DNA of 64,000 bases, taken from NCBI RefSeq assembly GCF_030013205.1, contig NZ_CP122648.1, one strand, 5' to 3'. How positions within the stretch are numbered: the first letter of the stretch is position 1; the number at the start of each line of letters is the position of its first letter. Positions 2,897-23,821 of this stretch are shown in pieces. A program made the translations under genes and the position numbers. The stretch comes from Escherichia coli (GTDB lineage: Bacteria; Pseudomonadota; Gammaproteobacteria; Enterobacterales; Enterobacteriaceae). The notes beneath the pieces were generated by a model. The model did no database searches. It was not told the origin of the DNA and saw only the letters and a program-made list of their open reading frames with translations.

Positions 2897-3112
2897 ATGT
2901 CAAATAAAATGACTGGTTTAGTAAAATGGTTTAACGCTGATAAAGGTTTCGGCTTTATTTCTCCTGTTGATGGTAGTAAAGATGTGTTTGTGCATTTTTC
3001 TGCGATTCAGAATGATAATTATCGAACCTTATTTGAAGGTCAAAAGGTTACCTTCTCTATAGAGAGTGGTGCTAAAGGTCCTGCAGCAGCAAATGTCATC
3101 ATTACTGATTAA
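2897..3112 (+). CDS. cspB: Cold-shock protein CspB
   Basis: 71 aa [24 protein letters not shown]... with RNP1-like motif (KGFGFI); long upstream leader typical of cold-shock genes. Confidence 0.9.
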
Positions 3113-3393
3113 AATTCATCGCTCGTCTGTATACGATAACGAAGAAGGCTGATGCCTGAGTAGAGATACGGACAGAGTAGTGAATATTGGATCTCTTTAA
3201 TAAAAAGTAAGGAGGTCCAATACATGAAACAATGGCTAGCATATTTGGCAAAATCTTAATCAGGAAAAGTATGCTAACCATTGTGGTGAAGTGCAGGTTT
3301 GCTGAATGAATAGTTTTACAGCAGAAGCTAACTGCTGGCATGGCAAAACAAAGTGCGTAAGTGGATGACTCCCACAAAAAGCACCACAATCTC

Positions 3394-11904: not shown

Positions 11905-12479
11905 TGGCATTCAGAATGAGTGAACAACCACGGACCATAAAAATTTATAATCTGCTGGCCGGAACTAATGAATTTATTGGTGAAGGTGATGCATATATTC
12001 CGCCTCATACAGGTCTGCCAGCAAACAGTACCGATATTGCACCGCCAGATATTCCGGCTGGCTTCGTGGCTGTTTTCAACAGTGATGAGTCATCGTGGCA
12101 TCTCGTTGAAGATCATCGGGGTAAAACGGTTTATGACGTGGCTTCCGGCGACGCGTTATTTATTTCTGAACTCGGTCCGTTACCGGAAAATGTTACCTGG
12201 TTATCGCCGGAAGGGGAGTTTCAGAAGTGGAACGGCACAGCCTGGGTGAAGGATACGGAAGCAGAAAAACTGTTCCGGATCCGGGAGGCGGAAGAAACAA
12301 AAAACAACCTGATGCAGGTAGCCAGTGAGCATATTGCGCCGCTTCAGGATGCTGCAGATCTGGAAATCGCAACGGAGGAAGAAATCTCGTTGCTGGAAGC
12401 ATGGAAAAAGTATCGGGTATTGCTGAACCGTGTTGATACGTCAACTGCACAGGATATTGAATGGCCAGCACTGCCGTAG
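11904..12479 (+). CDS. tfaQ: Tail fibre assembly protein (Tfa family)
   Basis: 191 aa; start overlaps the stf stop; conserved Tfa C-terminal region. Confidence 0.8.
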
Positions 12480-22490: not shown

Positions 22491-23381
22491 ATGATCAAGA
22501 AGACAACGGAAATTGATGCCATCTTGTTAAATCTCAATAAGGCTATCGATGCCCACTACCAGTGGCTGGTAAGTATGTTTCGCAGCGTAGTCGCGAGAGA
22601 TGCCAGTAAGCCAGAAATAACGGATAACCATTCTTATGGACTGTGCCAGTTTGGTCGGTGGATTGATCATCTGGGACCACTCGATAACGATGAATTACCT
22701 TATGTTCGGCTAATGGATTCTGCCCATCAACATATGCATAACTGTGGTCGGGAATTAATGCTGGCTATTGTTGAAAATCACTGGCAGGACGCGCATTTCG
22801 ACGCCTTTCAGGAAGGGGTGCTTTCTTTTACTGCGGCATTAACCGATTACAAAATTTATTTGCTGACGATCCGTAGCAATATGGATGTTTTGACGGGATT
22901 GCCGGGTCGTCGGGTTCTTGATGAATCCTTTGATCATCAGTTACGCAACGCTGAGCCTCTGAATCTTTATTTAATGTTGTTGGATATTGACCGATTTAAA
23001 TTGGTTAATGATACCTACGGGCATTTAATCGGCGATGTAGTATTACGCACCCTGGCAACTTACTTAGCCAGTTGGACGCGCGATTACGAAACGGTTTATC
23101 GCTACGGTGGCGAAGAATTTATCATTATTGTCAAAGCGGCTAATGATGAAGAAGCATGTCGTGCAGGTATCAGAATTTGCCAGTTAGTCGATAACCATGC
23201 CATCACACATTCTGAAGGGCATATCAACATTACCGTGACAGCAGGTGTGAGTCGCGCATTTCCTGAAGAGCCTCTGGATGTGGTCATTGGAAGAGCGGAC
23301 CGGGCAATGTATGAGGGTAAGCAAACCGGAAGAAATCGCTGTATGTTTATTGACGAACAAAACGTGATTAACCGAGTTTAA
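22491..23381 (+). CDS. dgcZ: Zinc-regulated diguanylate cyclase (CZB domain plus GGDEF)
   Basis: 296 aa from the ATG at 22491; GGEEF active-site motif (RYGGEEF) present. Confidence 0.85.
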   Translation: MIKKTTEIDAILLNLNKAIDAHYQWLVSMFRSVVARDASKPEITDNHSYGLCQFGRWIDHLGPLDNDELPYVRLMDSAHQHMHNCGRELMLAIVENHWQDAHFDAFQEGVLSFTAALTDYKIYLLTIRSNMDVLTGLPGRRVLDESFDHQLRNAEPLNLYLMLLDIDRFKLVNDTYGHLIGDVVLRTLATYLASWTRDYETVYRYGGEEFIIIVKAANDEEACRAGIRICQLVDNHAITHSEGHINITVTAGVSRAFPEEPLDVVIGRADRAMYEGKQTGRNRCMFIDEQNVINRV

Positions 23382-23417
23382 GCTCCGTTTAACATTCATT
23401 GAGAAAACTGATGCTAC

Positions 23418-23524
23418 TGTGTCAACGATCCGTTATCAGTGCAGGAAAATGCCTGTTAGCGTAAAAGCAAAACACAAATCTATCCATGCAAGCATTCACC
23501 GCCGGTTTACTGGCGGTTTTTTTT
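23418..23524 (+). ncRNA. mgrR: Candidate small RNA (MgrR-like), ending at an intrinsic terminator
   Basis: PhoP-box-like direct repeat AGTTTA-N5-CGTTTA at 23375-23391, then an A/T-rich stretch, then a stem (ACCGCCGG / CTGGCGGT) followed by eight T at 23498-23524; no plausible ORF. Position between dgcZ and mgtS matches the recalled mgrR location. Start coordinate is approximate. Confidence 0.4.
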
Positions 23525-23599
23525 CGCCGTCATAAAAATCAGGCCCCTTGTACACAGTTGTAACAAGGGGCCGGTTAGGTGAGGGATTATCTCCGTTCA

Positions 23600-23695
23600 T
23601 TAGTCATCCCATTTGTGGCTGAAATACGCGGCCAGAAAACCAGAAAATAAAATTATTCCCAGTACGGCCATAAAAACATTCATATTACCCAGCAT
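23600..23695 (-). CDS. mgtS: Small membrane protein MgtS (31 aa)
   Basis: Not in the ORF track (below 60 aa); reverse strand reads ATG CTG GGT AAT ATG ... = MLGNMNVFMAVLGIILFSGFLAAYFSHKWDD, with a GGAGG Shine-Dalgarno sequence 7 nt upstream and a downstream hairpin. Confidence 0.8.
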   Translation of the reverse strand: MLGNMNVFMAVLGIILFSGFLAAYFSHKWDD

Positions 23696-23821
23696 TATTT
23701 GCCTCCGTTTATGGTGTGGTGTGTTTCCTCGCTTACCTTAATTTTCATCTCAATGAGAAAGATATTAGCAGAGGTAACCTAAACGAAGGCTGAATTAAAT
23801 TTTTATTGTGTTCGACTTAAA

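Follow-up and report, generated by a model that had tools for sequence, protein, structure and literature searches.

At promoters of the phoP/mgtA type, the PhoP box overlaps the -35 region and ends approximately 12 bp before the -10 hexamer. The consensus of this box has been quoted as (T/G)GTTTA-N5-(T/G)GTTTA (PMC7667037). For the small RNA MgrR, dependence on PhoQ/PhoP and on Hfq has been reported (PMC6239178, PMC3536696), and mgtS, formerly yneM, was reported to be directly activated by PhoP (PMC3536696; PMC11429745). MgtS was described as a membrane protein that binds MgtA and PitA and has a low-Mg2+ phenotype (PMC10710835; 10.1101/511675). The roles of these genes in the PhoQ/PhoP low-magnesium response are already published, and regulation and function of the module have been treated in several studies (PMC6239178, PMC3536696, PMC12721325, PMC10710835, PMC11429745). 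In K-12, mgrR, mgtS and a further small gene, mgtT, are annotated; mgtS and mgtT are also part of the routine RefSeq annotation, whereas the ncRNA mgrR is not.

The window analysed, a stretch of 64,000 nucleotides, is part of the E. coli chromosome, and its dgcZ–ydeE spacer almost certainly carries the low-magnesium module mgrR / mgtS-mgtT, arranged as two convergent units, each with a PhoP-box promoter of its own (Table 1). Over the 551 bp comprising mgrR, mgtT and mgtS, many RefSeq E. coli genomes show 100% identity, the features beneath the match being dgcZ, mgtT, mgtS and ydeE; of 5426 complete genomes, 5416 have the locus. The K-12 stretch is collinear over the 551 bp, with seven substitutions and no indels, and is annotated with the gene order dgcZ, mgrR, mgtT, mgtS, ydeE. 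By this collinearity the identities and boundaries of mgrR, mgtT and mgtS are established here, and we met no evidence contradicting the gene identities. The convergent arrangement of mgrR and mgtS/yneM in the ydeI-ydeE region is the context expected for MgrR; it is also present in Salmonella, Citrobacter, Kosakonia and others, and in Enterobacter, Leclercia and Lelliottia MgrR occurs with no mgtS beside it. Across the Enterobacteriaceae, the promoter elements, the layout of the RNA and the mgtS reading frame are conserved. Since all three genes are already known and well studied or annotated in K-12, the stretch is an ordinary one. The initial annotation had reported two small genes as missed by a list of open reading frames with a 60-aa cut-off. 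All the sequence features it described are present where it had placed them and both genes were correctly recognised, but a third one, mgtT, was overlooked; neither MgtS nor MgtT would pass such a cut-off.

Table 1. Features of the mgrR / mgtS-mgtT locus (positions in the window)
Feature	Position	Strand	Basis or remark
Initially annotated direct repeat AGTTTA-N5-CGTTTA	23375-23391	+	only the downstream hexamer belongs to the conserved box
dgcZ stop codon TAA	23379-23381	+	overlapped by the upstream AGTTTA
PhoP-box-like repeat of mgrR, CGTTTA-ACATT-CATTGA	23386-23402	+	67 enterobacterial sequences
Extended -10 of mgrR, TGcTACTGT (TGnTAnnnT)	23412-23420	+	conservation in 67 sequences
mgrR sRNA	23427-23524	+	98 nt; K-12 b4698 mapped without indels; Rfam RF01407
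mgrR 5' hairpin	23431-23461	+	predicted fold
mgrR single-stranded A-rich stretch	~23463-23478	+	predicted fold
mgrR target-pairing region U55-A68	23481-23494	+	published pairing site (PMC6239178)
mgrR terminator stem and U tail	23498-23517, U tail to 23524	+	stem of 8 pairs (6 G-C) before a run of 8 T
mgtT, 34 aa, MNGDNPSPNRPLVTTVYKGPDFYDGEKKPPVNRR	23496-23600	-	ORF; RefSeq E. coli strain 104, K-12 b4775
mgtS terminator-like hairpin with UUUUU	23534-23572 (stem-loop 23542-23572, U-run 23534-23538)	-	fold
mgtS (formerly yneM), 31 aa, MLGNMNVFMAVLGIILFSGFLAAYFSHKWDD	23600-23695	-	ORF; identical to K-12 b4599
mgtS Shine-Dalgarno sequence GGAGG	23702-23706	-	6 nt before the ATG
mgtS promoter	23762-23796	-	conserved in 40 distinct upstream regions
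mgtS -10 hexamer TAATAT	23762-23767	-	TAnnnT conserved
PhoP-box-like repeat of mgtS, AATTCA-GCCTT-CGTTTA	23780-23796	-	12-bp spacer to the -10

The proposal that the plus strand encodes the sRNA MgrR was borne out by a covariance-model search, in which positions 23393-23606 matched RF01407 over model positions 1-214 with 280.2 bits (E = 4.9e-64; gathering score 55 bits), and by K-12, where the 98-nt ncRNA mgrR is collinear. No Rfam family is named MgrR; RF01407 is listed as STnc560, a name given to an RNA of approximately 90 nt bound by Hfq and encoded in the Salmonella ydeI/ydeE spacer (PMC2515195). With 214 nt, compared with 98 nt for MgrR, the Rfam model is longer than the RNA at both ends: 34 nt of promoter are included at the 5' end, and at the 3' end another 82 nt, which are antisense to the 3' region of mgtS. 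The first "helix" of the model (positions 18-31) is in reality the -10 region of the mgrR promoter. MgrR is identical to K-12 b4698 in 97 of 98 nucleotides, and the two are alike in position, length, hairpin, A-rich strand, pairing region and terminator; the sole difference is the unpaired position +4, a C here (the majority base of the family, 73%) and a U in K-12. In the initial annotation, the box preceded a non-coding segment of roughly 100 nt. The segment exists, but its first 35 nt or so are promoter, MgrR begins at 23427 and not immediately behind the box, and the last 29 nt of the 98-nt RNA are overlapped in antisense by mgtT. The strong terminator described at 23498-23524 was confirmed, stem and T-run, by a terminator scan.

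The minimum-free-energy fold of MgrR (-25.9 kcal/mol, z = -2.9) consists of a 5' stem-loop, a central single-stranded region with the A-rich and pairing sequences, and a 3' intrinsic terminator with its U tail, and RNase probing of MgrR (PMC6239178) agrees with this predicted layout. Homologues were collected with one DNA-pattern scan of genome contigs, in which the pattern preset part of the pairing core. Matches outside the enterobacteria (L013, L025, L075) look like contaminant contigs; a chance match (L038) was left out of the alignments. When the 5' domains were folded separately, the 5' hairpin formed in all 65 distinct homologues, from differing sequences. RNAalifold, applied to the MAFFT alignment of the homologues, recovered the terminator alone because the 5' hairpins differ by indels; one terminator pair shows covariation (AU 39, GC 18, GU 5). 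The pairing core AAAUCUAUCCAUGCAAGCAUU is essentially invariant in the 65 homologues, with 15 of its 21 positions preset by the search pattern, and U55-A68 is intact and identical to K-12. If the search was restricted to the single-stranded core, nucleotides 54-69 of MgrR were predicted to pair with positions -8 to +9 of eptB (-17.6 kcal/mol), using the same region as the published pairing site (PMC6239178). Since 69 of 1000 shuffled cores reached this energy, the duplex is consistent with pairing to eptB, not significant in itself. A whole-molecule duplexfold of MgrR against eptB was uninformative, shuffles scoring equally well.

The promoter of mgrR contains a box with the family consensus yGTTTA-N5-yrTTGA. 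GTTTA-N6-yrTT, the TGnTAnnnT element and the pairing core (the latter partly preset by the search pattern) are common to 67 enterobacterial sequences. Among these 67 distinct sequences, GTTTA at 23387-23391 is conserved to 100/100/100/97/100%, and in the downstream half TT at 23399-23400 reaches 100%, G at 23401 79% and A at 23402 82%. The extended -10 is also kept (T 94%, G 100%, TA 100%, final T 100%), and the annotated 5' end of MgrR lies 7 nt downstream of it. The conserved box ends at 23402 and the -10 hexamer begins at 23415, leaving 12 bp between them. As in the canonical PhoP-activated promoters of phoP and mgtA, the hexamer repeats of both mgrR and mgtS have an 11-bp periodicity and end 12 bp before the -10. 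Unlike the canonical box, each of them combines one strong CGTTTA with one degenerate hexamer (CATTGA in mgrR, AATTCA in mgtS), the strong one being promoter-distal in mgrR and promoter-proximal in mgtS, and the mgrR -10 differs from canonical PhoP-activated promoters in its extended TG. The downstream mgrR hexamer CATTGA is weak. Judging from the sequence, 23386-23402 is a putative PhoP binding site.

On the opposite strand, the translation of the mgtS frame is exactly as the initial annotation had quoted it, with GGAGG in front. The identification as MgtS is confirmed by the same sequence in K-12 b4599 and by profile searches, in which residues 1-31 matched profile positions 1-31 with 80.6 bits for the NCBIfam equivalog NF033842 (cut-off 35 bits) and 88.2 bits for Pfam PF22865 (cut-off 27 bits), approximately two- to three-fold above the cut-offs. 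The exact sequences of MgtS and MgtT are already on record under these names, the latter as "protein MgtT". MgtS consists of a single hydrophobic helix, its hydrophobic stretch covering some 20 residues (N6-F25), and a polar HKWDD tail. Homologues were sought in an exhaustive representative search, followed by exact-sequence contig look-ups and one DNA-pattern contig scan; the representative search yielded 22 matches and showed MgtS to be a narrow enterobacterial family. In 43 loci, nearly all of them from other enterobacterial species, the 31-codon frame is preserved, the others being mostly closed; variable sites are distributed 16/12/28 over the three codon positions, and 274 codon differences are synonymous compared with 101 non-synonymous ones. 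The mgtS frame is evidently under purifying selection. Together with the Rfam match, this conserved frame runs counter to the refuting conditions named in the initial annotation. At the place of the Shine-Dalgarno sequence, nearly all of 40 species retain GGAG(G)/AGGAG.

In 40 distinct upstream regions, the mgtS promoter is conserved as xxTTxA-N5-yGTTTA, a spacer and TAnnnT. Transcription is likely to start near 23754, as judged by the position of the -10 hexamer alone. Protein, Shine-Dalgarno sequence and PhoP-type promoter geometry are the same as for K-12 b4599, without any protein difference, and one substitution (23809) lies in the spacer upstream of the promoter. The terminator region of mgtS (23490-23605, minus strand) folds with -37 kcal/mol (z = -3.9). 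The hairpin arms GGCCCCUUG and CAAGGGGCC are conserved in Salmonella and in two further loci (L005 and L006), and the two differences from K-12 in this hairpin, at 23565-23566, are both in the loop.

The ATG of mgtT and the stop codon of mgtS have one base in common (TAATG), and the mgtT frame crosses the mgtS terminator before it reaches the 3' end of mgrR. K-12 b4775 agrees in the 34-codon frame and in the overlap by one base; the two adjacent substitutions in the hairpin loop change residue 15 of MgtT, a T here and a V in K-12. An ATG overlapping the mgtS stop was found in 38 of 39 distinct loci, with codons 1-6 fairly conserved. Beyond Escherichia, MgtT was not found to be conserved as a protein: only the start and the first six or so codons are kept, frames in other genera vary in length between 7 and more than 50 codons, and only Escherichia has the 34-aa form. 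The coupled start is conserved across genera and the length is not.

That the locus consists of chance look-alikes in an ordinary intergenic spacer, with small genes that are not expressed, has virtually no probability. The direct repeat would by itself allow it, being only about five-fold above expectation: GTTTA-N6-GTTTA occurs once in the 64-kb window compared with 0.22 expected, and at least one match was present in 19 of 100 shuffles, so that the repeat alone is weakly surprising and derives its meaning from its position. The Rfam and profile matches, the RefSeq annotation, the conservation across genera and the extensive experimental literature refute a chance origin. More has to be said about which hexamers form the mgrR box. 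The initial annotation had seen the PhoP box in a direct repeat of AGTTTA (23375-23380) and CGTTTA (23386-23391), separated by AGCTC and overlapping the dgcZ stop. The letters are as described and the downstream hexamer is part of the box, but its upstream partner is not conserved, and the register was off by one half-site. It is nevertheless conceivable, though we regard it as unlikely, that this repeat is the functional PhoP site of E. coli mgrR, either alone, in a position shifted upstream by one helical turn from the usual one, or as part of an array of hexamers at 23375, 23386 and 23397 to which two or more PhoP dimers would bind. The repeat matches the consensus in 10 of 12 positions and the conserved box only in 8 of 12, the three hexamers are spaced by exactly 11 bp, the four Escherichia sequences, among them that of E. 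albertii with its differing upstream flank, all have AGTTT(A/T), and PhoP has been reported to act from boxes whose distance to the promoter varies (PMC7667037). However, outside Escherichia positions 23375-23380 are at background, the major base reaching only 33-45% in the 67 enterobacterial sequences, and the repeat leaves a gap of 23 bp to the -10 hexamer. Only the pair at 23386-23402 combines conservation with the 12-bp spacing, and the neighbouring mgtS promoter has the same geometry. A third hexamer conserved across genera was rejected, since the upstream GTT motifs of Citrobacter, Salmonella and Enterobacter are in registers that differ between genera. Next to the conserved box at 23386-23402, E. 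coli may, as a smaller possibility, add a lineage-specific third hexamer (23375-23380) inside the end of dgcZ.

For mgtT, the uneven conservation could also mean that it is not selected as a protein, and that conservation instead concerns re-initiation coupled to the mgtS stop, by which ribosomes would enter the mgtS terminator hairpin and affect mRNA stability, the formation of 3' ends or antisense read-through towards mgrR. The constancy of the stop-overlapping ATG, set beside the variable length of the frame, speaks for this, as does the fact that the two hairpin arms dictate the sequence in the middle of the peptide. The full-length E. coli frame ends 36 nt past the U-run and therefore needs read-through of the terminator, and a deletion or overexpression phenotype has not been reported (PMC11429745). 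On the other hand, the tagged protein is detectable by epitope tagging (10.1101/511675), and codons 2-8 show a weak three-base periodicity (major-allele frequency 0.82/0.79/0.70 at positions 1/2/3), which is compatible with some selection on the peptide. We consider it improbable that mgtT serves only to guide ribosomes in this way. A still more doubtful idea is that the stop-start overlap is a conserved device which sets the level of antisense read-through over the mgrR 3' end and in this way couples the convergent genes, with the MgtT peptide being incidental.

For the module mgrR / mgtS-mgtT as a whole, we infer PhoP binding, Hfq dependence, targets and protein partners or take them from the literature. 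According to published work, low Mg2+ would activate PhoQ/PhoP, and PhoP, bound to the hexamer repeats 12 bp upstream of each -10, would switch on both promoters. From the plus strand the 98-nt, Hfq-dependent MgrR would be made, which would bind Hfq with its A-rich stretch and U tail and repress target mRNAs, among them eptB, ygdQ and pitA, by pairing through the invariant single strand U55-A68. The minus strand would yield the mgtS mRNA, encoding a 31-residue, single-helix inner-membrane protein that may raise intracellular Mg2+ by shielding the importer MgtA from FtsH and by an effect on PitA; the translationally coupled 34-codon mgtT would be part of the mgtS mRNA, too.

Genes below 60 aa and sRNAs can thus be recovered from raw sequence by a careful reader. 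A match to the consensus of a transcription factor box can be wrong by one half-site, an error that comparative alignment corrects. For mgrR, Rfam uses another name, STnc560, and sets boundaries that do not coincide with the true ends of the RNA. In this locus, only the unevenly conserved mgtT might lead to something new.

Many RefSeq E. coli chromosomes match the 551 bp around the locus at 100% identity, and of 5426 complete E. coli genomes 5416 contain the region. RefSeq annotates ydeI, dgcZ, mgtT, mgtS, ydeE and eamA across it in strain 104, and the flanking genes encode a CZB-GGDEF diguanylate cyclase and an MFS transporter. The collinear stretch of K-12 MG1655 carries mgtS (b4599), mgtT (b4775), the ncRNA mgrR (b4698, 98 nt) and dgcZ. 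Over the 551 bp the window differs from K-12 by seven substitutions and no indels, thus the K-12 gene boundaries carry over directly.

Features of the mgrR-mgtS locus, with conservation in the aligned homologues
Feature	Position	Strand	Remark
mgrR	23427-23524	+	98 nt, K-12 boundary
mgtT	23496-23600	-	34 aa, K-12 boundary
mgtS	23600-23695	-	31 aa, K-12 boundary
Upstream hexamer AGTTTA	23375-23380	+	major base just 33-45% per column, n=67
dgcZ stop codon TAA	23379-23381		
Downstream hexamer CGTTTA	23386-23391	+	
Conserved mgrR box	23386-23402	+	CGTTTA-ACATT-CATTGA
GTTTA	23387-23391	+	100/100/100/97/100% conserved, n=67
TT	23399-23400	+	100% conserved, n=67
G	23401	+	79% conserved, n=67
A	23402	+	82% conserved, n=67
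mgrR extended -10	23412-23420	+	
TG	23412-23413	+	94/100% conserved, n=67
TA	23415-23416	+	100% conserved, n=67
T	23420	+	100% conserved, n=67
mgrR terminator stem	23498-23517	+	8 pairs (6 G-C), then eight T ending at 23524
U-run of mgtS hairpin	23534-23538	-	
mgtS terminator-like hairpin	23542-23572	-	
mgtS Shine-Dalgarno GGAGG	23702-23706	-	6 nt upstream of ATG
AAGGTAAGnGAGG	23727-23739	-	mgtS 5' UTR
mgtS -10 TAATAT	23762-23767	-	12 bp from box; conserved, 40 distinct upstream regions
mgtS PhoP-box-like repeat AATTCA-GCCTT-CGTTTA	23780-23796	-	conserved, 40 distinct upstream regions

The candidate sRNA MgrR of the initial annotation was confirmed by the collinear K-12 ncRNA and by an Rfam covariance match, though the family is called STnc560 (RF01407) and not MgrR. 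The match is full length (23393-23606, 280.2 bits, gathering score 55, E = 4.9e-64). STnc560 is the name given to an Hfq-bound RNA of about 90 nt in the Salmonella ydeI/ydeE spacer, and STnc570 that given to the yneM (mgtS) transcript on the opposite strand (PMC2515195). The limits of the 214-nt model do not fit the 98-nt RNA: model positions 1-34 are promoter, so that the first model 'helix' is the -10 region, and positions 133-214 (82 nt) run antisense to the end of mgtS (its last codons and 3' region). Because of this extension, homologues without mgtS score barely above the gathering score. Elsewhere in the window, on the plus strand, Rfam gave a full-length match to RF02111 'IS009' (12247-12445, 221.7 bits) and two to the cspA thermoregulator RF01766 (2736-3128 and 5638-6022, 158.8 and 114.2 bits), presumably leaders of cold-shock-protein paralogues.

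The strong terminator proposed for MgrR is present. The predicted fold of the 98-nt RNA (-25.9 kcal/mol, z = -2.9, equalled by none of 200 shuffles) has a 5' hairpin (nt 5-35) and the terminator, separated by a long open centre. The layout matches that obtained by RNase probing, a study that also located in the centre both the pairing region U55-A68 and an A-rich, (ARN)5-like Hfq site (PMC6239178). When duplex prediction against the K-12 eptB leader was limited to this open centre, the best duplex joined MgrR nt 54-69 to eptB -8..+9, spanning the AUG (-17.6 kcal/mol). It falls on the published pairing site, and since 69 of 1000 shuffled cores were equally good, the eptB pairing is consistent rather than significant. 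Another MgrR target is pitA (PMC12721325). The only difference to K-12 MgrR is a C for U at the unpaired position +4, where C is the family majority base.

The initial annotation had placed the PhoP box at a direct repeat, AGTTTA-AGCTC-CGTTTA, which is indeed present and overlaps the dgcZ stop codon. Taken alone, the repeat is only mildly unusual: for its exact core, GTTTA-N6-GTTTA, the 64-kb window holds a single match versus 0.22 expected, with at least one match in 19 of 100 shuffles. As the PhoP box it is improbable, since its upstream hexamer is not conserved. Column conservation in 67 distinct sequences, aligned gap-free over this stretch, instead defines the mgrR promoter as yGTTTA-N5-yrTTGA, 12 bp and an extended -10 TGnTAnnnT, with the annotated 5' end of MgrR 7 nt downstream. 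The classical PhoP-activated promoters (phoP, mgtA) have this 12-bp distance between box and -10. The box first proposed shares CGTTTA with the conserved one and lies one half-site (11 bp) further upstream, 23 bp from the -10. AGTTT(A/T) is retained at the upstream hexamer within Escherichia; that it serves as a third hexamer specific to this lineage is a reading we consider improbable. With the conserved box as the preferred register, we infer that PhoP binds the mgrR promoter; PhoP-dependence has been reported for mgrR and yneM fusions (PMC3536696). The mgtS promoter on the minus strand is alike in architecture (hexamer repeat, 12 bp, -10). Most of 40 species retain the block AAGGTAAGnGAGG, and a second conserved one, AAATAA(T)TCAC, is located upstream of the PhoP box of mgtS.

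The 31-codon minus-strand frame translates, as initially quoted, to MLGNMNVFMAVLGIILFSGFLAAYFSHKWDD, is preceded by the expected GGAGG and is identical to K-12 MgtS in the collinear alignment. All 31 positions are covered by the NCBIfam equivalog model NF033842 (80.6 bits, cut-off 35) and by Pfam PF22865 (88.2 bits, cut-off 27), and over 1000 contigs carry the exact sequence under the name 'protein MgtS'. Intact copies of the frame occur in 43 loci, which comprise 34 distinct coding sequences and 22 distinct proteins. Variable sites are distributed 16/12/28 over the codon positions, and relative to the window allele there are 274 synonymous versus 101 non-synonymous codon differences; the alternative frames are for the most part closed. 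The consensus MlgNMnvF.aVLGiIlFSGFLAAYfSHkWDD is a single hydrophobic helix followed by a polar tail that is conserved. MgtS shields the Mg2+ importer MgtA from FtsH and also acts on PitA (PMC10710835).

A third gene, mgtT, was overlooked initially. This 34-codon frame is in the ORF list and annotated in RefSeq, and its exact product is on record as MgtT. Ribosome profiling led to its discovery, and the protein was detected by tagging (10.1101/511675). Its expression depends on PhoQP, it shares an operon with mgtS, its product is not membrane-bound, and neither deletion nor overexpression gave a phenotype (PMC11429745). The mgtS stop codon and the mgtT ATG overlap by one base (TAATG), and the 3' end of mgtT reaches 29 nt into mgrR in antisense. 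The frame crosses the mgtS terminator-like hairpin (116-nt region, -37 kcal/mol, z = -3.9), hence the full-length product needs read-through. Selection here may act on the peptide, on coupled translation into the terminator or on an RNA element. Of 39 distinct enterobacterial loci, 38 have the overlapping ATG, and across genera there is fair conservation of codons 1-6 (M-N-x-D-x-P). The ORF varies in length from 7 to over 50 codons, the 34-aa form occurring only in Escherichia, and the central RPL...KGP residues are just the translation of the two hairpin arms.

When 1.84 billion representatives were searched exhaustively with MgtS, only 22 matched, all of them either enterobacterial-type variants or calls that are frame-shifted or fused. 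Four divergent variants (Salmonella; Kosakonia arachidis, loci L005/L048; a metagenome; locus L008) each lie on a contig with an STnc560 match convergent with mgtS, also where the flanking genes differ. The pattern AAAWCTATCCATGCANNNNTNNACCG, derived from the alignment of these contigs and scanned against one genome per species, found 70 loci, about 66 of them in Enterobacteriaceae (Escherichia, Salmonella, Citrobacter, Enterobacter, Kosakonia, Leclercia, Lelliottia, Pluralibacter, Phytobacter, Silvania, Yokenella, Huaxiibacter). The MgrR core AAAUCUAUCCAUGCAAGCAUU is essentially invariant, which is partly circular since 15 of its 21 positions were preset by the pattern. One terminator pair covaries (AU 39, GC 18, GU 5), and the 5' hairpin folds in 65 of 65 distinct homologues with quite different sequences (medians -11.8 kcal/mol and z = -2.1).

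No mgtS was found within the available flanking DNA of several MgrR homologues (L011, L014, L018, L022, L035, L061, L071, L076 and others), from Enterobacter, Leclercia, Lelliottia, Silvania and Huaxiibacter, thus the pairing is not universal. The Pluralibacter MAG L033 has mgtS 4 kb from its MgrR homologue. Enterobacteriaceae bacterium RIT691 (L016) carries two MgrR-like copies 1.6 kb apart (1310-1531 and 2972-3136), both exceeding the gathering score (84.2 and 58.8 bits), and just one adjoins mgtS. Enterobacterial mgrR and/or mgtS also appeared in assemblies labelled as other taxa (L013, a Caldithrix MAG whose MgtS is identical to that of E. coli; L075, Chryseobacterium; L025; L062), which are probably contaminating or mis-binned contigs.

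The initial finding is correct and its features are real, all of them already known and annotated. Added here are the exact anatomy of the locus, the corrected register of the PhoP box, the caveat on the Rfam name and boundaries, and the third gene, mgtT.
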